Shown: positions 49,824-62,826 of the stretch, piece by piece
Numbering within the stretch: position 1 is the stretch's first letter
How the letters are laid out: each line of letters begins with the position of its first letter
Program-made: the position numbers and the translations under genes
DNA from: a virus
Direction: 5' to 3' (one strand)
Length of the DNA: 64,000 nucleotides
IMG/VR virus record: IMGVR_UViG_3300009130_001466
Location: 32,001 to 96,000 of that record
Notes under the pieces: generated by a model
Told to the model about the DNA's origin: nothing
What the model saw: only the letters and a program-made list of their open reading frames with translations
Database searches by the model: none

Positions 49824-49828
49824 TTTAA

Positions 49829-49903: not shown

Positions 49904-49907
49904 CTTA

Positions 49908-49983
49908 GGTCGCATAGTTTTAATTGGCAAAACAGCTGATTTGTAATCAGCCTTTCTCGGTTCAAATCCGAGTGTGACCTCCA
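49908..49983 (+). tRNA. tRNA-Thr (TGT)
   Basis: GCTGA-TTTGTAA-TCAGC arm, CCA. Confidence 0.88.
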
Positions 49984-49990
49984 TTTTTAT

Positions 49991-50065
<75 letters not shown>

Positions 50066-50124
50066 TTTTAACACACCCAGTGATCCTCTTCTTCATTGAA
50101 TGATCATAAAGGCTGGGTACATTT

Positions 50125-50321
50125 TACACAGGCGGTGTTGAAAGTAGAAACACTGCGTGGGCCAGCGTCCGAGGAAGGCGGAATATCGACTCGGTTAATT
50201 CTATGGCATTTTCGTGACCGTAACTGCAAAACGCGAAGCGCATAGAAGCATGGTGATCGATTGGTAATCGTAAGCCTAGTTCCACAAAGACCGTAATAGG
50301 AGTAACGACCTATCCTGTGTA
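50125..50321 (+). ncRNA. tRNA-like RNA with ~120-nt insert at the anticodon arm
   Basis: TACACAGG/CCTGTGTA closing stem, GGTGTT/AACACT D-like arm, ATAGG-AGTAACGA-CCTAT T-like arm. Confidence 0.55.
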
Positions 50322-50325
50322 TTAA

Positions 50326-50401
50326 GCACCTTTAGCTCAATCGGTAGAGCAGTTGACTTTTAATCAATTGGTTCTGGGTTCAAGTCCCAGAGGGTGTACC
50401 A
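50326..50401 (+). tRNA. tRNA-Lys (TTT)
   Basis: Canonical, CTTTTAA loop, CCA. Confidence 0.93.
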
Positions 50402-50408
50402 ATTTTAT

Positions 50409-50485
50409 TGGTTCGTGGTGAAGTGGCCTAACACAACTGGTTTTGATCCAGTCATTCGCAGGTTCAAATCCTGCCGAACCTACCA
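50409..50485 (+). tRNA. tRNA-Gln (TTG)
   Basis: ACTGG-TTTTGAT-CCAGT arm, CCA; 1:72 mismatch. Confidence 0.88.
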
Positions 50486-50487
50486 CC

Positions 50488-51070
50488 TTGACCCCTAATG
50501 CCTCTCATCTAAGTAGCCTTGATGATATGATGCACACTATAGGTAAAAAAAGCAGAGAACGTACCGCTCTGTCATAGGTCGTCAAATCGGTATCGTGAGG
50601 AGCAAACACGTTAACGTATCCAGCAGTGCAAGTGATGTAGGCTATTGCTCACTGCTGATCAATTTAATAGTTCTGATACTTTTCAAGAAGTATTGGGTAA
50701 TGATCCACCATTCCAAATAGGGGGAAACTAAAAAAGTAGTGTAGAACGTACTAGGATATGAGGCTTGTGGAATAGGCGTTGATTGAGCGGTATGCTGTTA
50801 GATCGATCATTTGTCATACAAGGTAACTTCTCTACGTCATCTATTGGGTTAACTATTATCAAAGTAGACCTGCCATGCCTCTGAATGACGAAATTCGGAC
50901 CTCAAGTGCCGTGAGAGTCGAAAGACTCCTATATCATTCAAGCATAATTTGGCGAAAAAGTATAAGAATCTGATCAAATCTTATATTGGTGTTTAGATTG
51001 AGTTTGTAATTTCTCTGCGACGGCGGGGGTTGATAATGAGGATAAGGACTGCGTAGCGGTCGACTCCCTC
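50488..51070 (+). ncRNA. Putative large structured ncRNA
   Basis: No ORF in track; nested long-range helices, GAGTC-GAAA-GACTC hairpin; between tRNAs. Confidence 0.6.
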
Positions 51071-51079
51071 ACACTTTTA

Positions 51080-51156
51080 GGGCCTGTAGCTTAATTGGTG
51101 AAAGCAGCGAACTCATAATTCGTTGAGTCTCGGTTCAAGTCCGAGCGGGCCCACCA
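51080..51156 (+). tRNA. tRNA with CAT anticodon (probably Ile2, possibly Met)
   Basis: GGGCCTG acceptor typical of Ile tRNAs, CTCATAA loop, CCA. Confidence 0.88.
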
Positions 51157-51162
51157 TTTTAT

Positions 51163-51234
51163 GTCGCAGTGTTTAAGGTAAACAAGTGGTCTCCAAAACC
51201 GCCAAAGGGGATTCGATTTCTCCCTGCGGCGCCA
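51163..51234 (+). tRNA. tRNA-Trp (CCA)
   Basis: GTGGT-CTCCAAA-ACCGC arm, G73, CCA. Confidence 0.82.
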
Positions 51235-51278
51235 TTTTTAGCTTGACTTTTATTTTTGGGGCAATAGTATACACACTC

Positions 51279-51818
51279 ATGGTAGAAGTTGAAGTTACAA
51301 AATTCATGCTTGATGAAGCAAATCAAAGAAATAAAAAATTCTATGAAATGTTCGGACATACAGGCACTCACAGATCAAACAAACACAGACAAAGAATAAC
51401 TGGTTATCTAGCCGAAGCAGCAATTAGCAACGCTTATGCAGATATAGTTTATGCGGAAGGTCATTCTGTTGATTTTGTTTTAAAAAACTCAGACACAATA
51501 GATTCCAAAGCTCAAGGGTGCAATGGCAAACCAATGTCTAATTATAGTGCCACCTTATATGAAGAGCAAAAAAATAGAGCCACCGATTACTATATTTTCA
51601 GTAGAGTCAAGAACGATTTTAGCGTTGTTTGGATATGCGGCATTATATCCAAAAAAAAGTTTTTCAAAATAGCTGACTTAAAGAAAGCTGGAACCAAAAC
51701 CAATAATTTCACTTATGATCAAAGTAGATATGAAATCGAATATAATCAATTAGCAGATATTGACACTTTTTTGAACTGGCACAAAAAAACAAACGCTCCG
51801 ATAGTTAAAGGGATATAA
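51279..51818 (+). CDS. PD-(D/E)xK-like endonuclease
   Basis: GYLAE..VDF..IDSKAQ motif; own TTGACT promoter; stop codon inside tRNA-Arg. Confidence 0.6.
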   Translation: MVEVEVTKFMLDEANQRNKKFYEMFGHTGTHRSNKHRQRITGYLAEAAISNAYADIVYAEGHSVDFVLKNSDTIDSKAQGCNGKPMSNYSATLYEEQKNRATDYYIFSRVKNDFSVVWICGIISKKKFFKIADLKKAGTKTNNFTYDQSRYEIEYNQLADIDTFLNWHKKTNAPIVKGI

Positions 51819-51869
51819 CCGCTGATTTCTAATCTGCTATTCCAGGTTCGAATCCTGGTCGGAGTACCA
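51795..51869 (+). tRNA. tRNA-Arg (TCT)
   Basis: GCTCCGA/TCGGAGT acceptor, TTTCTAA loop, GGTTCGAATCC, CCA. Confidence 0.85.
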
Positions 51870-52184
51870 ATTTTAAAAAAGAACTGCAAAACTGTATTTT
51901 GTTATGCGCTAATTGCCATAAGGAAGAACATGAAAGGCTTAGGCAAAAATAGGTCTCGTATTTTTTTGGTTTTTTCTATATGTGGTTCATAGCAGGTGCG
52001 CCGATTCTACCACAAAGGTAGGGGGGTACTTGCGCGAACGTTTCGCCGTTGTTTCAAATCGTGAAAATGTGTTTGGAGATTGAGGAAACTCTCCCCCCCG
52101 CTTGTTCTGTGTTTCTCTGGACACGTTTTTTTGACAATGGGGTAGGGTGTCTGTATAAAACTTTTATTTTTTTTCTATTAGGGG

Positions 52185-52212
52185 TTGACAACCGCAATGG
52201 ATTCCACATACT
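52185..52212 (+). promoter_or_regulatory. Early sigma70-like promoter (representative of >10 copies)
   Basis: TTGACA-16-CATACT, ATG 7 nt later. Confidence 0.75.
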
Positions 52213-52219
52213 GTAAGAC

Positions 52220-52399
52220 ATGATAAGCAATAAAGAAATCGACAACGTCATTGACCACCTCACGCAAGCGAGCTACAACACTCAGCGCAAGCTGTACCCT
52301 GAGATCAAAGCTAGTCGTTGGGGCAAAGTTTACGGCGAGGGCGTAGCAAAAAAACTTGAAAGTAATTTTCAAAAACACTTGACAATCGCACAAAAATAA
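52220..52399 (+). CDS. Small hypothetical protein (59 aa), paralog of 53924-54106
   Basis: VIDHLT..SY...RKL.PEI..SRWGK.YGE. Confidence 0.7.
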   Translation: MISNKEIDNVIDHLTQASYNTQRKLYPEIKASRWGKVYGEGVAKKLESNFQKHLTIAQK

Positions 52400-52413
52400 C
52401 CATACTATAAATC

Positions 52414-52599
52414 ATGAGTAAAATTGAATCAATAATTGAAGCTGAGTGCTACGATTGGAAGCCTTCCGATATTGAATGGTCTCTGCGAAAAGAAGATGTA
52501 CCAGAAATTGCAAGAAACATTAAGAAGCTTCTCATTGAAGAGATTAAAAACTACGCAGAACATATTGACGATGCGGTTCGATTTATAGACGATTTTTAG
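52414..52599 (+). CDS. Small hypothetical protein
   Basis: Own TTGACA/CATACT promoter. Confidence 0.65.
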   Translation: MSKIESIIEAECYDWKPSDIEWSLRKEDVPEIARNIKKLLIEEIKNYAEHIDDAVRFIDDF

Positions 52600-52638
52600 G
52601 GACTCTAATATCACACAAAAATAACCATACTATATAAC

Positions 52639-52797
52639 ATGAAAACTAAGATTACATACGAAGAATACGACATGATGTGGTTTGATCTCCGCGAAGGAAA
52701 GATCAGCGAAGAAGAATGGAGAGCGTTCTGCGATGAGCTTTTCGAGCAAGAGCTTGAGCGTAACAAGGGCGTAATGATTCGCCTAAAGAATCGTTAA
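52639..52797 (+). CDS. Small hypothetical protein (52 aa)
   Basis: ATG after CATACT; MKTKITYEEYDMMWF.. Confidence 0.65.
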   Translation: MKTKITYEEYDMMWFDLREGKISEEEWRAFCDELFEQELERNKGVMIRLKNR

Positions 52798-52859
52798 AAA
52801 AAATTAAAAAAAGTTTACGATAAGCTTGACATCACCCCTTGAATCCCTATTGTATACAT

Positions 52860-53069
52860 ATGATAACAAATAAAACATACACAGTCACCACAGTCGAATT
52901 CTCTAACACAGGCGAGATGCGCGAGCAAGTGCGCGACTTCCCTAAGTCTCGTGAGGGTCTCGCCGAAGCTTACGCTTTCGCTAATCCTTGCGACGAGTGG
53001 GCGATCTGGTTCGGCGACGAGCTGGTAGACGACAGCTGCTGCACCCCTGCTCACCTAGTGGTAGCGTAA
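52860..53069 (+). CDS. Small hypothetical protein
   Basis: TTGACA-16-TATTGT, ATG 6 nt later. Confidence 0.65.
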   Translation: MITNKTYTVTTVEFSNTGEMREQVRDFPKSREGLAEAYAFANPCDEWAIWFGDELVDDSCCTPAHLVVA

Positions 53070-53081
53070 CACCGAAGCCCC

Positions 53082-53158
53082 TAAGTCGCTGACAGTCAAC
53101 GACTTACGGGGCCGAGGCCGCCCCGCGCGCGTAAGTGCTTGATACTCAACGACTTACG
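53082..53158. repeat. Double-palindrome element copy 1
   Basis: Arm centres 53094/53144. Confidence 0.95.
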
Positions 53159-53237
53159 ACACGAAAAAAACTTTAAAAAACTTAAAAAAACTTTGCGATA
53201 AGCTTGACTTGCCACTTCTTTAACCTATACTGTAAGC

Positions 53238-53417
53238 ATGATTAAATATAACGAATTGCACGACCTCTCTTGCCAATACTGGGATGCTCTTGACCGCCAA
53301 GATTATGACTGGGCTGACTTCATCGACTCATGCCTTGAGCGTGAAGGCGTGGAGCGTCTTCCTCGCGAAGATTGCGAAGAGCCCATCCTTGACCTTTCTC
53401 CTCTCGAAGTAAACTAA
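53238..53417 (+). CDS. Small acidic protein (59 aa)
   Basis: TTGACT-16-TATACT, ATG 6 nt later; D/E rich. Confidence 0.65.
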   Translation: MIKYNELHDLSCQYWDALDRQDYDWADFIDSCLEREGVERLPREDCEEPILDLSPLEVN

Positions 53418-53421
53418 CCAA

Positions 53422-53757
53422 ATGACGATTATGACAAAAGCAATACTAGTAGACCCTTTTCTCCCCGCGATCTCAACTGTTGAGGTTGACGGGTTCGAAG
53501 ATATCCAACGCATGATCGATTGCCGCTGCTTTACTTGTGTGAGGTTTCCCGATGGCAAGCATGTCGCATACATTGACGACGAAGGATTAATCAATGGTAC
53601 GCAAAGAGGCGTTAGGTTTATCGACAAGATTTACCCCGATGCCTTAGCTGGTCGCGTTCTTATCCTTGCCGACGACGGGCAAGGTGGCGACGCTGACTGC
53701 GAGCTGACAGGCGCTGATATCCAAGCGATGATAAAAGGAATCGTGGAATTCGGATAA
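53422..53757 (+). CDS. DUF3846-like protein
   Basis: IQRMID..YIDDEGL..LAGRVLI pattern. Confidence 0.65.
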   Translation: MTIMTKAILVDPFLPAISTVEVDGFEDIQRMIDCRCFTCVRFPDGKHVAYIDDEGLINGTQRGVRFIDKIYPDALAGRVLILADDGQGGDADCELTGADIQAMIKGIVEFG

Positions 53758-53771
53758 AAAAGCTTGACACC

Positions 53772-53850
53772 CGTAAGTTGCTGATTATCAACGACTTACG
53801 GGCCCAGGGCCGCCCGCGCCGCGCAAGTGCTTGATAACCAAGGACTTGCG
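53772..53850. repeat. Double-palindrome element copy 2
   Basis: Arm centres 53786/53836. Confidence 0.95.
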
Positions 53851-53923
53851 TAATCTAAAATAAAAAACAAAAAAGTTTCCAAAACGCTTGACAACCACAC
53901 AAAATTTCCTATTCTATAAGATA

Positions 53924-54106
53924 ATGAAAGACACAAACAAATTAATCACCGAAGTAATCGACCACCTAACTTTTTCTAGCTATGCTCACAACCGCAAGCT
54001 AAATCCCGAAATCTCACCTTCTCGTTGGGGCAAGATCTACGGAGAAAAAGAAGTTGTTTTAATGGAAAAAACTTTCCAAAATACCTTGACAACCGCAAAA
54101 AAATAA
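53924..54106 (+). CDS. Small hypothetical protein, paralog of 52220-52399
   Basis: Shared SRWGK.YGE motif; own promoter. Confidence 0.7.
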   Translation: MKDTNKLITEVIDHLTFSSYAHNRKLNPEISPSRWGKIYGEKEVVLMEKTFQNTLTTAKK

Positions 54107-54120
54107 TCATACTGTATAAC

Positions 54121-54279
54121 ATGAACATTAGAAAAGAAATTAAAGTCTCATCAATTCTAACCGACGAAGTATTGCGTCAACAAAAAGAGTTAATCTCTAA
54201 AGGCTTTCAGCACGTCAATAACATTAAAAATGGTCGTCTTTCGGATGGTTACACAATGATTTTTGTTAAACAAGGGTAA
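54121..54279 (+). CDS. Small hypothetical protein
   Basis: TTGACA-16-CATACT, ATG 7 nt later. Confidence 0.6.
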   Translation: MNIRKEIKVSSILTDEVLRQQKELISKGFQHVNNIKNGRLSDGYTMIFVKQG

Positions 54280-54283
54280 TAAT

Positions 54284-54433
54284 ATGAAAATTTGGGAACT
54301 TTTAACTCTGGTGCTTTTTGGACTCATTCTTGGGTTGGCAATGTTTGTCGGGCTTAAGCTCGACGACAAAGCTCAACAAACGAAAGAAGCGACATGGGAA
54401 CGCTTCGAGGAAATCGACAACGCAATCAAATAA
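54284..54433 (+). CDS. Small membrane protein (49 aa)
   Basis: N-terminal hydrophobic helix. Confidence 0.55.
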   Translation: MKIWELLTLVLFGLILGLAMFVGLKLDDKAQQTKEATWERFEEIDNAIK

Positions 54434-54434
54434 A

Positions 54435-54572
54435 ATGAAAATAACTATTGACAAAACAACTGCAATTTGCTTGACAGTCGCGGCTTGCACTTACTTCATC
54501 GCAAATAAAATTAGCTGGTTTCAAAAAATGTTTGACACTGTCTCAGGGGTTGCGATAAACTCAATCATGTAA
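54435..54572 (+). CDS. Small hypothetical protein (45 aa)
   Basis: Stop TAA lies inside repeat copy 3. Confidence 0.5.
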   Translation: MKITIDKTTAICLTVAACTYFIANKISWFQKMFDTVSGVAINSIM

Positions 54573-54646
54573 GTGCTTGAATATCAACGACTTACGGGGC
54601 CAGGGCCGCCCGCGCCGCGCAAACCCTTGATAAACAACGACTTACG
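54569..54646. repeat. Double-palindrome element copy 3
   Basis: Arm centres 54582/54632. Confidence 0.95.
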
Positions 54647-54705
54647 CAACTAAAAAAAAGAAAAAGACTCTTGACAACCGCACAAAAATAACCATCATAC
54701 AAACT

Positions 54706-55038
54706 ATGAAACCACTAAGCAAAACACTGACAGAACTAGGGATTGCATTTAGCTTTCCTATTGAGATTAAAGACGCTAATGGCAAGCCGACTTACCGAGA
54801 GTACAGCGATGGCTACTGGTATAAGTTTGAGTATGATGACAATAATAAAATAACTTACTGCAAGAATAGTCATAACTACTCGTATAGGTGTCAGTATGAT
54901 GACAATGGCAACAGGAATTACTTCGAGGACAGCAATGGTCTCCGAGAAGGTGCGCCACGTCCAGCCAAATCAACTAATACCTGCGAAGGCAAGGTTGTCG
55001 AAGTGGACGGGATCAAATATAAATTAACAGCACTATGA
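54706..55038 (+). CDS. YD-like repeat protein
   Basis: EYDDNNK / QYDDNGN repeats; VVEVDGIKYKL tail. Confidence 0.7.
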   Translation: MKPLSKTLTELGIAFSFPIEIKDANGKPTYREYSDGYWYKFEYDDNNKITYCKNSHNYSYRCQYDDNGNRNYFEDSNGLREGAPRPAKSTNTCEGKVVEVDGIKYKLTAL

Positions 55039-55466
55039 AAAAATTAATCTTACTAACATTCGCCATCTGCGCATCAATAGCACAAGGCGCGACATTAACT
55101 GATTTAATTGTTGCTTTAGAAAAAGTGGAAAGCAATTGCAATCCTTCCGCTTATAACGAAAGCGAAAAAGCGTTAGGCTCTCTTCAGATTAGACCTATCA
55201 TGTTGGCTGATTATAATCGCATCTATGGCACGAATATAAAGCACAAGCAAATGTCAAACCGCTTGACTTCCCATAATATCGCAATCGGAATCTTTCGTCA
55301 CTATGAAAAGTATATCAAACGTAATGGCGAAAAGTTAAATGCAAAACATCTTGCCTTCGTTTGGAATGGAGGAGGATCAGCTTGGAAACGGGTTGCAAAT
55401 CCGAAAAGCGACAAAAAGCAAAAAAATCTAGAAATTTACTGGACAAAGGTCTCAAAGCATCTGTAA
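55035..55466 (+). CDS. Secreted lysozyme-like / transglycosylase-fold protein
   Basis: Signal peptide; LEKVES..P.A..ALGSLQI; WNGG; YWTKV. Confidence 0.75.
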   Translation: MKKLILLTFAICASIAQGATLTDLIVALEKVESNCNPSAYNESEKALGSLQIRPIMLADYNRIYGTNIKHKQMSNRLTSHNIAIGIFRHYEKYIKRNGEKLNAKHLAFVWNGGGSAWKRVANPKSDKKQKNLEIYWTKVSKHL

Positions 55467-55490
55467 GTTACTGGTATTCAACGACTTACG
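55463..55490. repeat. Single-arm element copy 4
   Basis: GTAAGTTACTGGTATTCAACGACTTACG. Confidence 0.9.
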
Positions 55491-55578
55491 CAACAAAAAA
55501 ACTTTAATCTTTTTTCAAAATCGCTTGACAGCCTAACCTTTTTTCTTATTCTTTTTTAAGCATTAACAACATCACTTT

Positions 55579-55773
55579 ATGATTGATAAACGAACAGAAA
55601 AACAAATCAAGAGGCTCTTCTCGGTGGTAGTAGACGACTCACTCATGGACGCTGACTTTGAATATGTCCAAGCAGCTATTGCTTGCGTTCGTAAAGAGTG
55701 TGATCAAGTTGAAGAATACATGAAGGAGATGGATAGACTTGCTGATGAAGATTCTATATCTAACACAATATGA
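55579..55773 (+). CDS. Small hypothetical protein
   Basis: Promoter upstream. Confidence 0.6.
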   Translation: MIDKRTEKQIKRLFSVVVDDSLMDADFEYVQAAIACVRKECDQVEEYMKEMDRLADEDSISNTI

Positions 55774-55862
55774 GACAATTCACCAACGGCGACACGGGCG
55801 AGGTCAAGACTATAGCTGAGGTCTTTGCCCTAATCCGCGAAGAGAGAGAAGGAGAGCCGTAA
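55770..55862 (+). CDS. 30-aa ORF (possibly truncated by the repeat)
   Basis: ATGA overlap with previous gene; stop inside repeat copy 5. Confidence 0.4.
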   Translation: MRQFTNGDTGEVKTIAEVFALIREEREGEP

Positions 55863-55936
55863 GTCTCTGACAGTCAACGACTTACGGGCCCAGGGCCGCG
55901 CCCGCCGCGCAAGTGCTTGATATACAACGACTTACG
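55858..55936. repeat. Double-palindrome element copy 5
   Basis: Arm centres 55872/55922. Confidence 0.95.
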
Positions 55937-56005
55937 CAACAAAAAAACTTTAATCTTTTTTCAAAATCGCTTGACAACCTCACCAAAATTCTTATTGTTT
56001 TAATT

Positions 56006-56188
56006 ATGACTACTACTGATTCCTTCTCTGATTCTTCTTTTGACCCTTGGGCTGACTTGTCCGAGGCCGAGTTCGCTGAGTTCGAAGCCGATATGTTGCG
56101 CGAGCAACAGGAGCGTGAAAGCGCCGAGGCGATGGCTCACGAAGCTCAGCTTGAGCGCGAGCTTATGGAAAGAGCCGACTTCCGCTAA
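56006..56188 (+). CDS. Small acidic helical protein
   Basis: ATG after TTGACA..TATTGT; E/D rich. Confidence 0.65.
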   Translation: MTTTDSFSDSSFDPWADLSEAEFAEFEADMLREQQERESAEAMAHEAQLERELMERADFR

Positions 56189-56195
56189 GGGGTTG

Positions 56196-56273
56196 CGCAA
56201 GCCCTTGACAGTCAACGACTTACGGGGCCGAGGCCGCCCCGCGCGCGTAAGTCCTTGATACTCAGCAACTTAC
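56196..56273. repeat. Double-palindrome element copy 6
   Basis: Arm centres 56210/56260. Confidence 0.95.
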
Positions 56274-56402
56274 AGAGGTTCCCGAAATTCATTTCGGGAA
56301 CATACATAACTGCTTGATCATTAGATATATACGCTATTTGTCTTGTATTTGCGTTCGATTTGCGTTCGATTTGATTTGGCGCTATTTTTTTTCAAAAAAG
56401 GG

Positions 56403-56454
56403 TTGACTAATGCCCAAAACAATACATAATGTAAAACATAATCGTTCTTTAACA
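56403..56454 (+). promoter_or_regulatory. Promoter plus boxA-like antitermination site
   Basis: TTGACT-16-CATAAT; CGTTCTTTAACA (cf. boxA TGCTCTTTAACA). Confidence 0.7.
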
Positions 56455-56465
56455 TTTTACAATTT

Positions 56466-56869
56466 AGACAAGCGAGTCCTAGAAGCTGGTAGATGAAATT
56501 GCTTTAGTAGGCTACCAAGGTTAAGCAAATCGTTTGTCTCTTATCTAACTCGAAGAAAGCCAGGTAAACAGCCGAGCATGGGGATCTGCTGGCAATGCGT
56601 CGAGGACAGCGTGGGGGTGCGTTGATAAGATTGATTAGTTAAACACCCTCAAGATTTAACCTCGCTTGGATGACGTCTGCCTTAGAAGGGCATCCCCAAG
56701 CCAACTGGATTCGCAAATAGCGAAGAGGGAGTTGCCACTGCTCTGAGGTTTTAACATTTTAAGCGGAGAATTTGAACGCTCGACCTAAACGCCTAAAGGG
56801 TTCACCCAAGCGGAAATGAGTCGAAAGACCGAGAGCGCCAACCAATTGAAACAGGTTATATCCGCACCA
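56466..56869 (+). ncRNA. Putative multi-domain structured ncRNA unit ending in ACCA
   Basis: No ORF in track; several closed helices; GCGGA/TCCGC-ACCA terminal module. Confidence 0.55.
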
Positions 56870-56954
56870 ATCTAAAAAAACTATTGACAAAGCTCAACTT
56901 TTGTGATTTAATATAATCTTAACAATCGAAAATCCAAAACGGAGAAAAGAAAAC

Positions 56955-57206
56955 ATGAAAAACCTAAAACTAAATCCAATCCAAAAAACTCGCCTTGCTA
57001 TTCGTCGCGCTTTCGCTAAGAATAATATGGCTCAAATCACCTACAAGAAAAAGTCTGATGAGACTGTTGGCTCTTATGTCATTGACATGAATTTCATTGA
57101 AGACTTGGGCGATATGTTCAACACCTATTCTTACGCCACTGGCGCGAAGCACAGCGGCATCCGCTCCTTCTATAAAAACCGAATCGAAAAAATTAAACTT
57201 GTGTAG
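56955..57206 (+). CDS. WYL-like (Sm/SH3-fold) small protein
   Basis: ITYKKK..GIRSFYKNRIEKIKL resembles the WYL RxFxxxRI motif. Confidence 0.55.
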   Translation: MKNLKLNPIQKTRLAIRRAFAKNNMAQITYKKKSDETVGSYVIDMNFIEDLGDMFNTYSYATGAKHSGIRSFYKNRIEKIKLV

Positions 57207-57217
57207 CGTGATTGGTT

Positions 57218-57337
57218 AACGTGTGTGTGCCGCCTCGTCTTGTGGTTAGGGCGAGGCGGCTTAAATTTCTTTTGTTGTAGTCGTGTGCAACGTGTGTGTG
57301 CCGTCTTACCTTTTGTGTATGGGGTAAGGCGGCTTTT
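57218..57337 (+). terminator. Tandem duplicated TG-tract + hairpin
   Basis: Two AACGTGTGTGTGCCG...GGCGGCTT units. Confidence 0.6.
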
Positions 57338-57359
57338 CGCTATATGGATCAAGAGTTCT

Positions 57360-57437
57360 GTAAGTCCTTGATGGTCAACGATTTACGCGGCGGGGGCCAG
57401 CGCAGACCCGCAAGTGCTTGATAATCAACAACTTACG
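57360..57437. repeat. Double-palindrome element copy 7
   Basis: Arm centres 57373/57423. Confidence 0.95.
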
Positions 57438-57507
57438 AATTCAAATAAATTTAAATAAATTTTTAAAAAGGGTTGACTCGTCGAATTAAATAATACATTA
57501 TACTAAT

Positions 57508-57798
57508 ATGAAAATGACAAAAACAACTACAGAAAACCTCACCCTTGAAAACTCATTCGGAACAATCCGCGAAGAAAATGGAGTCCAGATGAATATATCC
57601 GTGCATGTCCAGCCAAACAAAAATTATGGTTCGTTTGAAATGTATGACGAAGAAACTGGAGGTGAAGAATGGTATGCCGAAGGAGGTCTTTGGTTTGAGG
57701 GCAAGGAACTGGTTGACTACGATGGAGTTTTTGCTCTATCTCCGTCAATTATTCAAATCTTAGAAGACAAAGGTTATGATGCTTCTTATGCAAAGTAA
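57508..57798 (+). CDS. Acidic hypothetical protein
   Basis: GGLWFEGKELVDYDGVFAL motif; promoter upstream. Confidence 0.7.
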   Translation: MKMTKTTTENLTLENSFGTIREENGVQMNISVHVQPNKNYGSFEMYDEETGGEEWYAEGGLWFEGKELVDYDGVFALSPSIIQILEDKGYDASYAK

Positions 57799-57836
57799 TA
57801 CTTGACTAATCACAAAAAATAATACATCATATCAAC

Positions 57837-58178
57837 ATGAAGAAAATAACCTTATCACTACACCGCAGCGAAGATGAACCTTTTGTTCAGAAATGGGAGG
57901 TCGCTCGCAAATGTGTTTTTGCTGTTCGGCTGAACGTAGAGCATATCGAATATCCACATATTCCGTCAAAGCTTGCTGAGCTTTTGTTTCACGTTACTAA
58001 CGCGCCGACCGAGCTTATCACTAAAACACACGAAAAAATTCTTTTGGCTCTGTGGGAAAACTGCTCGGACAAGAGAACCTTTCACTCTACAAGTGTCGGA
58101 GATGTCGTTAAGATCTGTGATTGTAACGGACACCCAACAACTTTAATGTGCAAATCAGTTGGATGGGAGGAGCTATAA
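57837..58178 (+). CDS. Hypothetical protein
   Basis: HSTSVGDVV..C.SVGW motif (YodL-like end). Confidence 0.65.
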   Translation: MKKITLSLHRSEDEPFVQKWEVARKCVFAVRLNVEHIEYPHIPSKLAELLFHVTNAPTELITKTHEKILLALWENCSDKRTFHSTSVGDVVKICDCNGHPTTLMCKSVGWEEL

Positions 58179-58357
58179 TGACAATCGATCAAATAAATTC
58201 ATACTGCTACGAACATTACGAAGACGGCGGCGATATTGTAGTAGAGTGCATGGAAGATGAAGAGAAGCTCAAACGTTTTGAAACTTTGGAAGACCTCAGA
58301 CAATACATTGAGATACGCCAAGAGCATCGCCGAGAAATTGAATCAACCATTTGGTAA
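58178..58357 (+). CDS. Small acidic hypothetical protein
   Basis: TAATG coupling; HYEDGGD.VVEC. Confidence 0.65.
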   Translation: MTIDQINSYCYEHYEDGGDIVVECMEDEEKLKRFETLEDLRQYIEIRQEHRREIESTIW

Positions 58358-58358
58358 T

Positions 58359-58706
58359 ATGAAAGTAAGAGTATACAGAAACCTGCACAAAAAATGTTTT
58401 TCGGTTCAAGAGAAGACAGAAAAAGGCTGGCGAGTCAAACGCCACGCCACTTCTATCGTGCTTAAAAACGCCTCGTTTCGTGTTTCTGAAGCTGGACGCA
58501 AAAGAGTGTTAAAAGAAAAAAGAAAAAATGTTCACGCTTTTATAGAGGGCTATGAAATAAAAAACAGCACACAAAAACACAAGTGCGAAGTTTGTGTTAG
58601 CTACAATCCTTACAAGTGTGACCACTTTGAAACTAACTCCCACGATCCAGTTTTTTTTGCTCGACTCGCTCATGTTAATCTCTCAGGGTGCAAAATCCAT
58701 AAGTAG
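58359..58706 (+). CDS. Conserved phage hypothetical protein
   Basis: VYRNLHK..FSV, RKNVHAF, YNPYK; stop inside repeat copy 8. Confidence 0.75.
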   Translation: MKVRVYRNLHKKCFSVQEKTEKGWRVKRHATSIVLKNASFRVSEAGRKRVLKEKRKNVHAFIEGYEIKNSTQKHKCEVCVSYNPYKCDHFETNSHDPVFFARLAHVNLSGCKIHK

Positions 58707-58776
58707 TTGATATTCAACGACTTACGCGGCCGCGGCCGCCCCCGCGTCGTAAGTCCTTGATATTCAACGACTTACG
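58700..58776. repeat. Double-palindrome element copy 8
   Basis: Arm centres 58712/58762. Confidence 0.95.
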
Positions 58777-58924
58777 CAACTTTGACTGCTCTGGGGCTCA
58801 AGTTCCGTGCCAACTTTTTTTCTAATTATTTTTTTATTTTTTTGGTAAACGCTTGACACCACATTGATTTTCTCATATGATGTAATCTCACAATTAAATA
58901 ATAATACTATATAAAGTTAATACT

Positions 58925-59725
58925 ATGAACATCGAAAATACACACCCTGCAAATCAAGAACTCCTTCGCCTTAACGTGTGCGAATCAAAACAGTGCGACT
59001 TCTCTAAGGTTCAAGCTGTCTCTACTCCCGACGCTTCTGATCGTTGGACTCCTATCGCTCACGATGCTTTGGTTGGTCAATTCCGCGAGTCTATCGGCAA
59101 CACTGATCTTGAGATCGTGAATGAGCATCACGCGTTGCACCGCTATGGTCAACGCTACTTTGGCTTGTTCCAAGTCAAGGGCGTAGGTCGCAAGCATGGC
59201 GATGACGTTGGCACTGTTATGTGTCTTCGCAATTCTCACGATAAGGCTTTCCGCGCTGGCATCTCTGCTGGTGATGCGCCTTTCGTTTGCTCCAACTTGA
59301 TCTTCTCTAACGAGATCGTGCTTGGTCGCCGCCATACTACTCACATCATGCGCGACTTACCGCAAATCATTTCACGTGCGATTGGTCAACTTATGGAGTC
59401 TTGGATTACTACGGACAACCGCATTGACTCCTACAAGTCAACCGAGATTGATGATCGTGTGGCTCACGACTTAATCCTGCGCGGCTTTCAAGCTGGCGCG
59501 TGTGGCAAGACGCAAATTGCTGACATCTTCACACAGTGGCACAAGCCCGAACATGAGAACTTTGAGGGTCGCGACCTTTGGAGTCTTCAAAACGCCTTCA
59601 CGAACGTGTGGAGGGGCAACACGCTCAACACGGCGAACCGCTCAAGCTCGCTCTACTCCGTGCTTGACACCTTCGCGGCTCACGCCAAACCAGTTGAGGG
59701 CGAATTAGTTCTCAACGCTTCCTAA
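58925..59725 (+). CDS. DUF932/DUF945-like protein
   Basis: LRNSHDK....FVCSNL, RRHT, LWSLQNAFT. Confidence 0.75.
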   Translation: MNIENTHPANQELLRLNVCESKQCDFSKVQAVSTPDASDRWTPIAHDALVGQFRESIGNTDLEIVNEHHALHRYGQRYFGLFQVKGVGRKHGDDVGTVMCLRNSHDKAFRAGISAGDAPFVCSNLIFSNEIVLGRRHTTHIMRDLPQIISRAIGQLMESWITTDNRIDSYKSTEIDDRVAHDLILRGFQAGACGKTQIADIFTQWHKPEHENFEGRDLWSLQNAFTNVWRGNTLNTANRSSSLYSVLDTFAAHAKPVEGELVLNAS

Positions 59726-59733
59726 CGGCTCTC

Positions 59734-59765
59734 GCCTCACCCTTCGGGGTGGGGCTTTTCTTTTT
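59734..59765 (+). terminator. Intrinsic terminator (UUCG loop)
   Basis: GCCTCACCC-TTCG-GGGTGGGGC plus T-run. Confidence 0.8.
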
Positions 59766-59777
59766 CTGCTTGACATT

Positions 59778-59856
59778 CGTAAGTGCTTGATAATCAACGA
59801 CTTACGCGGCCGCGGCCGCCCCCGCGTCGCAAGTCCTTGGTATTCAACGACTTACG
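59778..59856. repeat. Double-palindrome element copy 9
   Basis: Arm centres 59792/59842. Confidence 0.95.
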
Positions 59857-59981
59857 CAACTTCTTTCACGCGCTGGTCGCTGAGCTTGTCAAGTCTTTTC
59901 TTTAGGTTTTTTTTGAAAAGTTTTTTTAATTTATTTTAAATATCGCTTGACTTGCGCGACAAATTCTCAGATAATGCTTTT

Positions 59982-60689
59982 ATGACTAAACTACTAAACA
60001 ACGGAAACTCGAAAACAATCAAAGGCGAAAAACTTGGATGGACTACTTTTGGTCTACACCTTGCGCCTTTTAACTTGGCTGGCAAAAATGTTTGCGCCCA
60101 TGCTTCGGCTGGATGCGCTGCTGCTTGTCTCAACACTGCTGGACGCGGCGCGATGTCGAATGTGCAAAAATCTCGCATTGCAAAAACACAAAAATTCTTT
60201 GCCGATAAAAATGCTTTCGTATGGCAACTTGCTAAAGAGATTAGCAACGCTGTTAAACTTTCCGCAAAAAAAGACATGAAGCCATGCTTTCGTCTCAATC
60301 TTACAAGCGATCTGCCTTGGGAAAACATAAAAGTTGAATCGCACGGAAAAAAGCTTTCGCTTATGGAGATGTATCCCGATGTGCAGTTTTACGATTATAC
60401 CAAGTCTTTTCCGCGTATGCAAAAATATCTAAAAGGTGAAATGCCAAGCAACTATCATCTTACCTTTTCGCGTAGTGAATGTAATGACAACTTAGTTGAC
60501 TTGGTTCTCAAGCTTGGCGGAAATGTCGCGGCAGTCTTTCGCAATGAGTTTCCTAAGTCTTGGAAGTCTGTGGAAGTTGTCAACGGTGACGAAACAGACT
60601 TGCGTTTTTTAGATGCGCAAAATAAAATTGTTGGACTTGTGCAAAAAGGACTTGCCAAGAAGGACGAAACAGGCTTTGTTATAGGCTAG
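59982..60689 (+). CDS. Phage Gp88-like protein (radical-SAM-like Cys motif)
   Basis: VCAHASAGCAAACL, FRLNLTSD, QFYDYTK, NYHLTFS, GDETDLRFLD. Confidence 0.75.
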   Translation: MTKLLNNGNSKTIKGEKLGWTTFGLHLAPFNLAGKNVCAHASAGCAAACLNTAGRGAMSNVQKSRIAKTQKFFADKNAFVWQLAKEISNAVKLSAKKDMKPCFRLNLTSDLPWENIKVESHGKKLSLMEMYPDVQFYDYTKSFPRMQKYLKGEMPSNYHLTFSRSECNDNLVDLVLKLGGNVAAVFRNEFPKSWKSVEVVNGDETDLRFLDAQNKIVGLVQKGLAKKDETGFVIG

Positions 60690-60741
60690 TAAATGATAAT
60701 AATTCTAACCCTCTTAATCTTCTTAATGATAACACTCAACC

Positions 60742-60948
60742 ATGAATCCTACTGAACGATATAATCTAATCAAAAAAATCTGTGAAAGCAAAAATCAAAT
60801 CAACTCGCACGGGCAACTGCCCACGACCGAAACCGACTTGCAAGACGAATTCTTACGCTTCCAAACTAGCGTCGAACCTCTTGCAACTAAACAAGACTCA
60901 AGGCTATGGCAAAAAAGTTTCTTCCAAAACTTAGTCTTCGGCAGTTAG
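60742..60948 (+). CDS. Small hypothetical protein
   Basis: 68-aa ORF. Confidence 0.5.
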   Translation: MNPTERYNLIKKICESKNQINSHGQLPTTETDLQDEFLRFQTSVEPLATKQDSRLWQKSFFQNLVFGS

Positions 60949-61050
60949 AAAAAACCGTTAGGAAAGGGTTAGGCTTAATGCCTTCCCGCCCCTTTCGCGA
61001 CCGCTCGAAATACAACCGCAAAAACAAACACAAAAAAACGTTAGACTAAA

Positions 61051-61227
61051 ATGAACTACAGTAAAAAATTCGGCTTCTATAATCCTAAAACTAAAATTGC
61101 TCAAGTGTATGACGGCTCCAAGCGCACTCCAACTAATACCGTTGTAAATGGTAAGGTTGGCTTTAGCATACCAAAAATTTTTGTCGGTAAATGCTCGCGA
61201 GCGCAGTTTGATAAACTGATCTCATAA
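61051..61227 (+). CDS. Small basic protein (58 aa)
   Basis: Stop TAA inside first arm of repeat copy 10. Confidence 0.55.
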   Translation: MNYSKKFGFYNPKTKIAQVYDGSKRTPTNTVVNGKVGFSIPKIFVGKCSRAQFDKLIS

Positions 61228-61345
61228 GCGCTTGAGCTTCAACGACTTAGGGATCGGCTAGAATTCCCTAAGTCGCTGGTAGTCAACGACTTACGCGGCG
61301 GGGGCCGCCCCCGCGTCGTAAGTGCTTGATATAGAACGACTTACG
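61225..61345. repeat. Triple-arm element copy 10
   Basis: Arm centres 61237/61281/61331. Confidence 0.93.
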
Positions 61346-61425
61346 CAACTTGCTCGCAGGAGACAGAGCGGGCTTTTTTTAAAAATAATAGTTGACAGAA
61401 CCATTTTTTTCGTTAGACTGTAGTC

Positions 61426-61620
61426 ATGATAATCAAAAAAGATGACCTCCTCCGCCCCACTCGCAACCACGCTCGCACCGTCAAGGTAATGTTTACCTAC
61501 TCTTGTGGGAAACTCGCCATGATCTACTGCCCTACTGTTGGGCGTGGCGATGTCAGGCACATCGACCTCTACGAAGGTTGGGCTATCGAGCGTGACGGGA
61601 ATCACGTCGGGACTGTGTAA
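61426..61620 (+). CDS. Small hypothetical protein
   Basis: TTGACA-16-TAGACT, ATG 6 nt later; stop inside repeat copy 11. Confidence 0.6.
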   Translation: MIIKKDDLLRPTRNHARTVKVMFTYSCGKLAMIYCPTVGRGDVRHIDLYEGWAIERDGNHVGTV

Positions 61621-61693
61621 GTCCTTGCTAGCCAACGACTTGTGGGGCGGGGGCCGCCCGCGACGCGCAACTCCTTGATATACAACAACTTAC
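61617..61693. repeat. Double-palindrome element copy 11
   Basis: Arm centres 61630/61680. Confidence 0.93.
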
Positions 61694-61837
61694 AAAACTT
61701 CAGTCTCAATATAGTCTCATTTAATTTTTTTGGTTTGGTATATTATTAAGTCTTTATTTGGTTTGGTATAGATTCCCACTCATATTTGGTATAATACAAA
61801 TTGTCAAGCTTATTTGGTTACTATATAATTCGGCACG

Positions 61838-61893: not shown

Positions 61894-62826
61894 CTACATA
61901 TCTTTTAATATGTTTACACCTTTGCCGCTTATCTCACGCTGACCATTGATCTTCATTAGACCACGCTTGAGAAGATAGAGTTCTGCTTCTTTCTGGATTG
62001 CTGTGCGACTCATACCTGTAACGGCTGAGAGCATCTGAAGTGAGCAGTTGCCACGCTCCTTGAGGATGCTGAGAATCTCAAGCTCAATGTTGGACAACCC
62101 AAGAGGCTTGATACCCAAGGTGTGAGACATCTTCTCCCAATCCTTTTTGGAATAGTCCTTGTTATTCACAGACTCGCAGTAGAGCATGATCTCTTTGGAA
62201 CGCTTGACTGCTGAACGAGCGTTGCCCCTTGTAGTCTCAGCAATCTCTGTGAGAATCCCATCCTCAAACTCAATCTCGCCACAAACCAAATCAATAATTT
62301 CAGATAGCTCGTCAACTGTATAAGGCTTGAAGTCTACGATAGTGAGGCGATCCTTGAAGGGAGCAAACAACTTATCCATCTCAGTAGTAGCGAAGATGAA
62401 ATTTTGTTGGGCAAAATCAAAAGCAAAAATCTGTTCGCCATGATGATACTCTTTGAAGTTGCTCTTCTCTGTGTTGAATACAGTAAGGAAGGCGTTAACC
62501 AAATCCTTGGGAAGCATGTGCGCCTCGTCCAATAGGATGGTAATCTCGTTGTGCATCACAATGGGCAAGAAGATTTGCTCAAAGAAAGCATTAGCATTTT
62601 TAATAGTGGAGCAGTTGATCTCAAGGAATGGACGTTGACTGCCATCCTTGTTCTTGAGATTGGAAGCATACTCCTTAGCGAACTCAGTCTTACCCAAGCC
62701 CTTTGCCCCACTCAACATAAGAAATGGTGCGACTCCAGTAGAATTTTGTGCTTTAGCGTAAAAGGAAAGCTGACGCTTTACCTCGTCTTGACCGATTAGG
62801 TTTTTGAACATAGTTTTAGTAATCAT
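61894..62826 (-). CDS. ruvB: RuvB-like AAA+ ATPase
   Basis: IGQDEVK, GAKGLGKT, LLDEAH, ATTE, F.DRL, RGNAR, C-terminal winged helix (E.YLL..GL). Confidence 0.8.
   Translation of the reverse strand: MITKTMFKNLIGQDEVKRQLSFYAKAQNSTGVAPFLMLSGAKGLGKTEFAKEYASNLKNKDGSQRPFLEINCSTIKNANAFFEQIFLPIVMHNEITILLDEAHMLPKDLVNAFLTVFNTEKSNFKEYHHGEQIFAFDFAQQNFIFATTEMDKLFAPFKDRLTIVDFKPYTVDELSEIIDLVCGEIEFEDGILTEIAETTRGNARSAVKRSKEIMLYCESVNNKDYSKKDWEKMSHTLGIKPLGLSNIELEILSILKERGNCSLQMLSAVTGMSRTAIQKEAELYLLKRGLMKINGQREISGKGVNILKDM

Follow-up and report, generated by a model that had tools for sequence, protein, structure and literature searches.

What are the palindromic elements that recur between the early genes of an uncultured phage of about 113 kb, and what might they do there? 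The phage (G000, an IMG/VR record of 112.8 kb) was analysed mainly through a window of 64,000 nucleotides, corresponding to positions 32,001 to 96,000 of the record, in which 11 such boundary elements partition the early-gene region into units.

Anatomy of the boundary elements

A fuzzy scan of the entire 112.8-kb record found 22 arms, all on the plus strand and all between window positions 53081 and 61693, which are grouped into nine doublets, one singlet (55463), and one triplet (61224/61268/61318). These results agree with the number of arms and elements, their common orientation, and their absence from the first 53 kb given in a preliminary description of the locus, although its start coordinate of 53082 is corrected here to 53081. 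No arms are present elsewhere in the window, and the only weak arm-like matches beyond the array lie at positions 35248 (seven mismatches) and 104399 (four mismatches, outside the window) of G000. The 12-mer TCAACGACTTAC, allowing at most two mismatches, has 35 matches compared to 4.5 expected, a number reached in none of 100 shuffles. The elements and the features around them are as follows (window coordinates).

53081–53157, plus strand: element 1, doublet (arms 53081–53107 and 53131–53157, GC linker of 23 bp), 11 bp past the stop of ORF 52860–53069; next promoter with its −35 at 53204
53773–53849, plus strand: element 2, doublet, arm 2 the most degenerate (four mismatches); downstream of the DUF3846 gene 53422–53757; promoter 53888
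54569–54645, plus strand: element 3, doublet, arm 1 holding the TAA stop of the upstream ORF; promoter 54671
55463–55489, plus strand: element 4, singlet, overlapping the stop of the SLT-domain gene 55035–55466; promoter 55525
55859–55935, plus strand: element 5, doublet, arm 1 holding a stop codon; promoter 55971
56197–56273, plus strand: element 6, doublet, followed by an ORF-free unit of 0.6 kb with its own promoter at 56403
57360–57436, plus strand: element 7, doublet, with two canonical terminators upstream (57229–57270 and 57300–57343); promoter 57473
58699–58775, plus strand: element 8, doublet, overlapping the stop of the L5-gp82-like gene 58359–58706; promoter 58853
59779–59855, plus strand: element 9, doublet, downstream of the DUF932 gene and a canonical terminator (59734–59765); promoter 59947
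61224–61344, plus strand: element 10, triplet (61224/61268/61318), its second pair 50 bp apart with a 7-bp GC hairpin as linker, followed by a hairpin and T-run at about 61352–61380 (read by eye); promoter 61392
61617–61693, plus strand: element 11, the last doublet, overlapping the stop of ORF 61426–61620 and converging with a minus-strand block
61894–62826, minus strand: clamp-loader-like gene, ending opposite element 11
49682–61829, plus strand: 17 promoter-like sites (TTGACA, 16/17 nt, yATnnT) with A-rich upstream tracts

Each arm is a palindrome of 27–29 bp, (C)GTAASTCGTTGA-TWA-TCAACGASTTAC(G), with one arm on each side of a stem-loop. All ten arm pairs with a GC linker are exactly 50 bp apart from start to start, as already described, and in the triplet the additional pair has a spacing of 44 bp and a linker that is not GC-rich. 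The stronger conservation of the right half-arm also holds, with 17 mismatches to the consensus over the 22 arms compared to 54 in the left half. At the position of the singlet, the relative L025 has a full doublet at the orthologous site, and in six of the 11 cases the upstream ORF ends at a stop codon within the element itself. The polarity shared by all 22 arms is not required by a symmetric dimer and may have been inherited via duplication. A CRISPR array is ruled out, in line with the preliminary description, by the gene-filled intervals of 0.3–1.4 kb and by 23-bp linkers that are GC-rich and mutually similar.

Linkers, terminators, and unit ends

The linkers have a GC content of 87%, compared to approximately 31%–45% in the surrounding genome region, and are strand-biased along the direction of transcription (first half, 288 G and 201 C; second half, 168 G and 315 C). 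In G000, the linker fold barely exceeds that of composition-matched shuffles (z −0.35), and a U-tail or T-run after the linker is found in none of the 11 elements, as had been stated before. A GC hairpin directly followed by a U-tract, as in intrinsic terminators, is thus not seen in G000 but is present in its relatives of the 58/60-bp lineages, whose linker is a canonical hairpin with a T-run (MFE z −3.0 and −1.8) that is always co-directional with the genes. In addition, the scan called the three canonical terminators that adjoin elements 7 and 9, and a fourth hairpin with a T-run can be read after the triplet, which suggests that the elements alone may terminate poorly.

The elements sit at the 3' ends of units, with the final one at a convergent junction. 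The 17 promoter-like sites serve the tRNA operon and the early cassettes, and since five equally good promoters (52185, 52379, 52826, 54086, and 57802) have no upstream element, it is the unit ends rather than the promoters that the elements track.

The arms are constrained as sequence

Stem pairing in a set of 148 arms (82.7%) is nearly the same as in shuffles (81.6%), revealing no covariation. Arm pairs 5/23 and 8/20 are unpaired in 43%–49% of these arms, and G-U and C-A combinations are about equally frequent in the arm stems. Furthermore, arm 2 of the 58-bp class lies downstream of the T-run, outside the transcript, and is conserved as well as arm 1. The lack of stem covariation indicates selection on the half-site sequence, as would be expected for a dimeric protein binding double-stranded DNA. 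This pattern points to arms that behave like protein-binding DNA sites, with one dimer per palindrome, and together with the single intergenic sites in bacterial chromosomes (see below) it supports the paired sites for a dimeric protein that were proposed earlier.

Alternatively, the elements could act at the RNA level, with the arms and linker folding into two or three hairpins or one stem of about 29 bp that would terminate transcription without a U-tract, be processed by RNase III, or stabilise the 3' end, comparable to the early RNase III sites of T7 or to REP hairpins. Their position at the 3' ends of units, their stable predicted folds (−26 to −57 kcal/mol, z down to −4.9), the G-then-C bias of the linkers along transcription, and the uniform polarity of the G000 arms are consistent with such a role. 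However, we consider it unlikely, given the absence of stem covariation, the frequently broken variable pairs, the lack of a preference for G-U over C-A, the arm beyond the terminator T-run, and the retention of the palindrome in bacterial DNA of all gene orientations, as described in the following section.

Distribution in phages and bacterial chromosomes

One pattern scan showed that the palindrome is kept in at least 78 multi-arm IMG/VR contigs of an uncultured clade of large phages. Each lineage keeps a constant doublet spacing (40–42, 48, 50–53, or 58 bp), and the arm consensus is identical across lineages with TerL proteins that are only about 64% identical. The preliminary description had placed the paired sites five helical turns apart; the 50-bp distance holds in G000, but this interpretation is weakened by the other lineages, and spacings of 48 and 58 bp do not share the helical phase of 42 and 52 bp, so that one same-face geometry does not fit them all. 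A conserved virus-only block encoding PhoH, a Zn-ribbon protein, a sigma-like protein, and a 348-aa protein adjoins the arrays in 25–37 loci. The clade is diverse and its contigs come from IMG samples that we take to be mostly aquatic, so its hosts probably vary; CRISPR-spacer matching against 151 Fibrobacteraceae genomes identified no host.

In bacteria, the palindrome occurs as a conserved single intergenic site in Fibrobacter, one Akkermansia, and one Pedosphaera. We found 52 palindrome loci in GTDB, compared to approximately 0.3 expected by our own calculation and about zero for reversed-pattern controls. In 21 Fibrobacter species the palindrome lies midway in one orthologous divergent intergenic region with diverging flanks, and overall the bacterial sites are found in intergenic DNA of every gene orientation, including these divergent promoter regions. 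The distribution is patchy: the motif was seen in 5 of the 81 Verrucomicrobiota and 19 of the 61 Fibrobacterota that were sampled.

Similarity to IHF sites and the candidate binder

The half-site (W)ATCAA-CGAS-TTAC fits the IHF consensus WATCAANNNNTTR, used here as quoted in published papers, and is mirrored about the IHF dyad. A strict match to WATCAANNNNTTR on at least one strand is present in 163 of 267 arms (13 of 22 in G000), and the centre base of the arm is W in 84%. The coincidence with the dyad depends in part on the kink positions that we assume for the IHF-H' crystal structure. Beyond the half-site, the arms differ from IHF sites in being paired and in their perfect symmetry, in which two consensus halves mirror each other and the A-tract half is missing; N4, unconstrained in E. 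coli IHF, is partly conserved here (CGAS); and the carriers of the motif are Fibrobacter and Verrucomicrobia instead of Proteobacteria, the likeness to IHF sites being one of sequence.

No HU/IHF (PF00216), HTH_3, or recombinase genes were found in the phages searched, and host-type genomes encode two to five HU/IHF genes each. As each half-site corresponds to the IHF consensus mirrored about the dyad, the HU/IHF family is the most probable source of the binder, and our best guess is a host HU/IHF-type protein, even if the patchy occurrence of the motif in bacteria is odd for a universal protein of this family. IHF sites upstream of lambda pL and Mu Pe stimulate those promoters, and arm 2 presumably lies in a similar position, its centre falling at about −52 to −95 relative to the next early promoter.

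The arms might instead be operators of a phage-encoded protein of an unrecognised family, acting as an early-gene shut-off repressor or a stoperator-like roadblock. A motif kept throughout a large and diverse phage clade, a lineage-specific spacing as expected if the sites co-evolve with a phage protein, and the virus-only gene block beside the arrays would fit this explanation. In contrast, no HTH, RHH, or other DNA-binding family was detected in the early and right-arm ORFs of G000 or in its relatives, and the identity of the consensus at the observed TerL divergence exceeds what is usual for fast-evolving early proteins. Moreover, the conserved sites in core Fibrobacter loci require a bacterial binder, and we regard a phage-encoded one as improbable.

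Cassette shuffling

When compared with G000, three relatives (G148, L025, and L087) show swapped, lost, and duplicated cassettes between flanks that remain collinear. G148 has the GP88 and DUF932 cassettes in exchanged order, and duplications are present in L025 and L087. These differences in cassette content, copy number, and order support the "shufflable accessory-gene array" of the preliminary description. Searches with positive controls found no Resolvase (PF00239) or Phage_integrase (PF00589) genes in G000 (83% complete), G148 (67%), or three fragments, and no inverted elements were seen. Since no recombinase was found, homologous recombination would account for the shuffling.

It is very unlikely that the arms are dedicated site-specific recombination sites mobilising the cassettes, similar to integron attC sites, pdif modules, or res/hix sites. 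The elements do lie at the borders of cassettes that relatives lose, duplicate, or reorder, and the 12-bp half-sites with spacings of 34 and 50–53 bp presumably resemble resolvase res subsites. Yet, besides the negative recombinase searches, the central spacer is an odd 3 bp, each locus has a single orientation without inverted segments, and the length of the repeated blocks, promoters included, suffices for homologous recombination, as shown for the promoter-early stem-loop (PeSL) cassettes of T4-type phages (PMC2839356). The recombination-site role suggested earlier thus finds no support, with no serine or tyrosine recombinase found in G000 or a 92-kb relative and no inverted elements seen, and nothing in our analysis points to the DNA-entry, segregation, or decoy roles also listed.

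Finally, the arms are hardly credible as bidirectional promoters for the phage ECF-like sigma factor (window 44278–44949), with GTAAC as −35 and CGAS as −10: the sigma-like gene is conserved beside the arrays, with weak Sigma70_r2 and r4_2 matches, and GTAAC and CGAC presumably resemble ECF −35 and −10 motifs, but the spacer is 14 nt compared to the usual 16–17, both halves are conserved with perfect symmetry, and bacterial genomes carry the sites without the virus-only gene block.

Proposed function of the elements

We propose, with a probability that we judge to be about even, that the elements are protein-bound boundary (insulator) cassettes of an early region transcribed by the host RNA polymerase and shuffled by homologous recombination. 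Read from 5' to 3', each cassette has a first palindromic site, a GC-rich stem-loop formed by a G-run and a following C-run, and another palindromic site, after which come an A-rich tract and a promoter of the sigma-70 type. The stem-loop may end or attenuate the upstream transcript, as in the tested PeSL stem-loops of T4-type phages, and each palindrome of 27–29 bp would be the double-stranded DNA site of one dimer of a protein with sequence specificity, for which the most probable origin is the host and the most probable family that of the HU/IHF DNA-bending proteins. Two sharply bent complexes 40–58 bp apart could lock the terminator into a compact nucleoprotein block, which would block read-through and, given the location of arm 2, affect the shape of the DNA preceding the next promoter. 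Homologous recombination between the repeated blocks of about 80–130 bp would then delete, duplicate, and reorder cassettes. In this model, the anatomy of the elements, the conservation of their sequence rather than structure, the sites in host-type genomes, the terminator of the 58-bp class, and the cassette shuffling are observed, and protein binding, the identity of the binder, and the insulating function are inferences. If correct, the model would introduce a protein into the concept of promoter/terminator cassettes, which explains how phage early regions can acquire or shed genes with their regulation left intact.

Another reading, which we put forward tentatively and consider rather doubtful, is that the palindrome is the site of an undescribed architectural protein (homodimeric and IHF-like, or of another family). 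A few dozen intergenic copies of the site would be in use in Fibrobacter and scattered Verrucomicrobia, and the uncultured clade of 100–300-kb phages would have co-opted two copies per early terminator as protein-locked insulators. Such cassettes would form a new regulatory type in phages, one relying on a DNA-bending protein of the host.

If the model is correct, the palindrome also offers a cis-element for finding a DNA-binding factor in some Verrucomicrobia and in Fibrobacter, an important rumen cellulose degrader that is genetically little studied. As a marker, the motif is sensitive for a large clade of phages without a cultured member, and the compact unit of 77 bp could find use as a part for transcriptional insulation.

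Comparison with known systems

Like the elements described here, the PeSL regulatory cassettes known from T4-type phages (Arbiol et al. 2010, PMC2839356; Comeau et al. 2014, PMC4122927) are repeated in intergenic regions among small ORFan early genes. The PeSL stem-loops consist, in the published description, of "polyG followed by polyC", and lacZ assays showed that they terminate transcription (PMC2839356). Both cassette types combine a polyG-then-polyC stem-loop with an AT-rich tract and a strong sigma-70-like promoter: G000 has 17 plus-strand sites with a sigma-70-like early promoter and an AT-rich upstream tract, its G-then-C stem-loops lie between the preceding ORF and the promoter, and its cassettes border indels, replacements, and rearrangements between relatives. 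Residence in the hyperplastic region of a T4-like myovirus, which would indicate common descent, does not apply to G000, which has a siphovirus-like layout with a tape-measure protein and a TerL at most 29% identical to that of any deposited phage. What is new relative to PeSL cassettes is the 27–29-bp palindrome on each side of the stem-loop, which is clade-wide, also present in bacterial chromosomes, and arranged in a fixed doublet geometry; terminator activity and mini-circles are features of PeSLs, whereas the likeness here is drawn from the DNA sequence. This PeSL-type architecture does not appear in the preliminary description, nor do the terminator-type linker, with its full U-tract in a sister lineage, and the palindrome in host-type genomes.

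The BIME/RIP elements of enterobacteria combine REP palindromes with an IHF site, BIME-1 having the order REP, IHF site, REP. We take them to resemble the phage elements as repeated, polar, extragenic composites of imperfect palindromes and an IHF-type site, often at unit ends. Compared to BIME-1, the phage elements presumably have the inverse layout (IHF-like site, GC hairpin, IHF-like site), tens rather than hundreds of copies, and a location in a phage. With regard to a RAYT link, Y1_Tnp was found only in G003, without a palindrome nearby, and not in G000, G004, G005, or G113.

The stoperators of cluster A mycobacteriophages (L5 gp71 sites) are similar in their many copies, their location in short intergenic gaps, and their single orientation relative to transcription. 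They are, however, asymmetric single sites of 13 bp bound by a temperate-phage repressor, in contrast to the paired symmetric 27-bp palindromes around a GC hairpin, and the HTH_3/repressor or integrase genes of a stoperator-type system were not found in the phages searched. Integron cassettes are likewise promoterless-looking small-gene units ending in a structured palindrome that can hold a stop codon, but here each unit has its own promoter and no integrase was found. Furthermore, attC sites conserve structure while their sequence varies, and the phage arms show the reverse, retaining the sequence without maintaining the pairing.

Paired palindromes at the ends of early-gene units

The palindromic feature is real; it is not random and is conserved widely. 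When the entire phage genome (G000) was scanned with mismatches tolerated, 22 arms were found, each a 27-bp palindrome, all in one orientation and all within positions 53081–61693 of the window. Grouped as nine doublets, one singlet, and one triplet, they stand at the ends of early-gene units, and all ten arm pairs with a GC-rich linker are spaced exactly 50 bp from arm start to arm start. The 12-mer of the 3' half is over-represented about eight-fold, a count reached by no shuffle, and the right half-arm is nearly invariant, with 17 mismatches in the 22 arms versus 54 in the left half. In six of the elements, the stop codon of the preceding ORF sits within the element itself. The preliminary description of the array, including its arm counts, spacing, and half-arm asymmetry, is thus correct. 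An ncRNA in the ORF-free unit at 56280–56880 (about 0.6 kb, promoter at 56403) is unsupported by our tests, since this stretch has no Rfam match and folds no better than shuffled sequences (z 0.21). The stretch 57158–57269, which overlaps both ORF 56955–57206 at its 3' end and the first canonical terminator, has a weak, sub-threshold Rfam match to the Bacteroides sRNA BTnc201 (31 bits versus a gathering score of 105); this is probably a hairpin similarity only.

The source record in IMG/VR, of which the window covers bases 32001–96000, is linear, 112.8 kb long, and 83% complete, and encodes a tape-measure protein, a large terminase (TerL), a ribonucleotide reductase, and eight tRNAs. The phage has no close deposited relative; megablast of the array against deposited phages gave no match, and no phage in the collection searched has a TerL more than 29% identical. 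Structural and regulatory genes on the minus strand run up to about 49.1 kb of the window. The plus-strand block at 49.7–61.7 kb contains tRNAs and about 26 small ORFs, is served by 17 near-identical predicted sigma-70-type promoters with A-rich upstream tracts, and converges with a minus-strand block at ~61.8 kb. Its few recognisable products (DUF3846, an SLT-domain protein, DUF932, L5-gp82-like, and GP88) are typical accessory early genes. Two minus-strand features were noted:

42328–45975, minus strand: conserved block beside TerL, encoding a PhoH-like ATPase, a 104-aa Zn-ribbon protein, a 223-aa sigma-like protein, a 348-aa virus-only protein, and an ERCC4 + C2H2 nuclease
61894–62826, minus strand: AAA+ protein (PHROGs DNA-polymerase clamp loader, 3e-15; modest RuvB_N and RuvB_C matches)

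The first of these directly adjoins palindrome arrays in 16–37 related contigs; the r2 and r4_2 matches of its sigma-like protein are weak. Judged by its matches, which are better for a clamp loader than for RuvB, the AAA+ protein does not support the idea that a Holliday-junction motor works on the palindromes. Between the convergent blocks, the gap at 61725–61830 contains three to four TTTGG(TTTGG)TATA-type motifs and one TTGTCA-17-TATAAT site, which may be promoters of another class, e.g. for the phage sigma-like protein. The right arm of the genome (positions 94001–112801 of G000, L231) encodes a spermidine synthase and an S-adenosylmethionine decarboxylase for polyamine synthesis, together with a cupin/JmjC protein, a macro domain, and DNA glycosylases.

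Linkers resemble terminators

Relatives were collected by scanning IMG/VR with a 16-base core, after which the retrieved loci were searched in a mismatch-tolerant way. Two or more arms are present in at least 78 contigs, often 6–18 at gene-sized intervals, and about 40 further loci have a single match only, which may be due to chance. Doublet spacings fall into classes of 40–42, 48, 50 (by far the commonest), 51–53, and 58–60 bp, with extra arms at 34 bp. Linkers have a GC content of 73–95% in most classes and 60–64% in the 53- and 58-bp classes, and those of a handful of pairs at 43–44 bp are AT-rich.

The linker of the 58/60-bp classes is a classic intrinsic terminator, GCGACCCC-TTCG-GGGGTCG-TTTTGG, which folds far better than shuffled sequences (z −3.0 and −1.8). 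These terminators always point with the genes (8/8 in L099 and 9/9 in L075, two related phage loci); an invertible-terminator switch is rejected because all linkers of a locus face one way. The 50-bp class, which includes G000, has a 23-bp linker with 87% GC whose length is kept while its sequence diverges. Its first half is G-rich and its second half C-rich in the direction of transcription, and it is barely more foldable than composition-matched shuffles (z −0.35). Because this linker matches the stem-loop of the promoter-early stem-loop (PeSL) cassettes of T4-type phages, we read it as a putative terminator or attenuator. Canonical hairpin and T-run terminators adjoin four G000 elements (three called by the scan, the fourth read by eye), so the elements alone may not be fully efficient as putative terminators.

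Arms are conserved as sequence rather than as hairpins

Across 267 non-redundant arms from many phages, oriented by their flanking genes, both halves are equally conserved, with the consensus GTAASTCGTTGA-TWA-TCAACGASTTAC, usually preceded by C and followed by G. The one-sided degeneracy of the G000 arms is lineage-specific (GTAAGT-SC-TTGA) and common to close relatives, and is most simply explained by inheritance through duplication. Watson-Crick pairing at each stem position of the 267 arms equals the expectation from independent columns, and G-U pairs are no commoner than C-A. In a set of 148 arms, 82.7% of cells are paired versus 81.6% after shuffling, and pairing fails at stem pair 5/23 in 43% of arms and at 8/20 in 49%. 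Arm 2 of the 58-bp class lies beyond the T-run of the terminator and is therefore mostly outside the transcript, but its conservation equals that of arm 1. The absence of covariation and the conservation of this second arm show that what is selected is each half-site's own sequence rather than a hairpin. Such a conservation pattern is what a dimeric protein binding double-stranded DNA would leave, in line with the earlier proposal of paired sites for a dimeric protein.

The palindrome also occurs in bacterial chromosomes

Scanning GTDB, one genome per species, with a 22-position palindrome returned 52 loci versus ~0.3 expected by chance (our estimate). About 35 of them are in Fibrobacter, where a single orthologous locus accounts for 21, each in a different species (L129–L178). 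There, the palindrome lies midway in a divergent intergenic region of ~420 bp, flanked by two genes, one for a giant (>2000-aa) Big_9/cadherin adhesin and one for a conserved 136-aa protein (76–96% conserved, no assigned family), and is kept while its flanks diverge. At up to three mismatches, two of three Fibrobacter genomes have ~10–14 sites each and the third has 2, with ~10 in one Pedosphaera and ~30 in one Akkermansia; reversed-pattern controls gave none in four of five genomes, and 2 and 5 matches in Pedosphaera. The distribution is patchy: among those sampled, 19 of 61 in Fibrobacterota and 5 of 81 in Verrucomicrobiota have the palindrome. From the conserved chromosomal sites we infer that a bacterial protein must read the palindrome, at least in Fibrobacter.

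The chromosomal sites lie between genes of all orientations, and their neighbours (e.g. dnaA, fabD, pilM, glycosyltransferases) are unrelated. An association with terminators is weak (14/116 within 60 bp versus a 5% random background). A position upstream of rRNA operons is rejected, those loci having no Rfam matches, and so is the REP/RAYT idea, with no strong link to RAYT transposases. Nor was any transcription factor gene enriched among the heterogeneous neighbours, as would be expected for autoregulation. In Akkermansia sp. G005 (L179–L198), each of the ~30 intergenic palindromes has a second palindrome, TACAGCATT-n4-AATGCTGTA, 4–10 bp away; the pair is a composite dispersed element and often adjoins glycosyltransferase or polysaccharide genes. 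In Pedosphaera sp. G004 (L219–L224), two arms 76 bp apart lie upstream of paralogous, highly repetitive genes, and these upstream regions also carry three GTTACgctt direct repeats. A host search by CRISPR spacers in 151 Fibrobacteraceae genomes yielded only tRNA similarity and short matches without repeat arrays, and blastn with one element only chance matches, including one without arms in Cellulophaga phage phi19:1.

Candidate binding proteins

No genes of the HU/IHF, HTH_3, resolvase, or integrase families were found in G000, its 92-kb relative G148, and three fragments, and 52 G000 ORFs, small or from the right arm, showed no DNA-binding family. Found most often next to the arrays are genes for PhoH, the Zn-ribbon protein, the sigma-like protein, and the 348-aa protein. 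As a binder common to phages and hosts, the Zn-ribbon and 348-aa proteins are set aside because both are virus-only families in the protein atlas, and the 136-aa neighbour because it is Fibrobacter-only. Phages whose TerL proteins share only ~64% identity have an identical arm consensus, and bacteria have the same one, which suits a host protein that evolves slowly better than an early protein of the phage.

In IHF-bound DNA, the two kinked steps lie 9 bp apart and enclose WATCAR, and the flanking TTR is clamped. The half-site (W)ATCAA-CGAS-TTAC equals the E. coli IHF consensus as quoted in papers, WATCAANNNNTTR. Strict matches to this consensus on at least one strand occur in 163 of the 267 arms, and 84% have A or T at the centre. 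The numbering of the H' co-crystal, which we take to be kinks at 28/29 and 37/38 and TTR at 43–45, places the IHF dyad on W. As W is also the centre of the palindrome, the arm would be a symmetrised IHF site, a resemblance and not a test. The host-type genomes have 2–5 HU/IHF-family genes each. Two Akkermansia sites have HU genes 2.6 and 3.8 kb away, a proximity too slight to serve as evidence. Both the partial fixation of N4 and the patchiness of the palindrome favour a protein more specific than generic HU.

A putative boundary module in a shuffled array

The elements track unit ends and not promoters: five promoters of the same quality lack one, and no cassette follows the last G000 element. 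The end of arm 2 is 4–19 bp before the next −35 in relatives, and in G000 arm 2 lies 40–61 bp before it in 7/10 cases (our measurements). An ECF-sigma promoter is dismissed, the spacer being too short and the site symmetric. An activator site tied to promoters is weakened by the five promoters without arms and by arm-promoter distances of 40–143 bp. The best reading is a putative boundary module, in which a terminator-type stem-loop would be locked between two protein-DNA complexes, limiting read-through between strongly transcribed units and shaping the DNA upstream of the next promoter. The element appears to work like a PeSL cassette and adds a pair of conserved palindromic putative protein sites, whose palindrome is also found in Fibrobacter and Verrucomicrobia chromosomes.

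The array had also been proposed to be shufflable, and the relatives agree in that cassette content, copies, and order differ between them. G148 is collinear with G000 (60–90% amino-acid identity over ~90 kb), but its array comprises five doublets and one singlet, many G000 cassettes are missing, and the GP88/61051 cassette precedes the DUF932 cassette instead of following it. The related locus L025, with 87–95% nucleotide identity to G000 in the PhoH and tRNA block, has a duplicated gene end plus element, lacks the gene at 54706–55038, and carries a doublet at the position of the G000 singlet. In L087, another related locus, the 53238 gene is duplicated and the 52860 cassette has elements on both sides. 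A dedicated recombination system is not supported, no recombinase having been found in G000, G148, and three fragments; given this and repeats of 80–130 bp, homologous recombination suffices. The same explanation is given for PeSLs, for which homologous recombination between repeats has been shown (PMC2839356).

A paralogous 59–60-aa gene (..IDHLT..SY..RKL.PEI..SRWGK.YGE..) is found at 52220–52399 and 53924–54106, and also in G148, L025, and L087. It recurs as the first gene after elements, with two to three copies per genome in relatives, and its 3' end encodes the next promoter, with CTTGACA within its codons.
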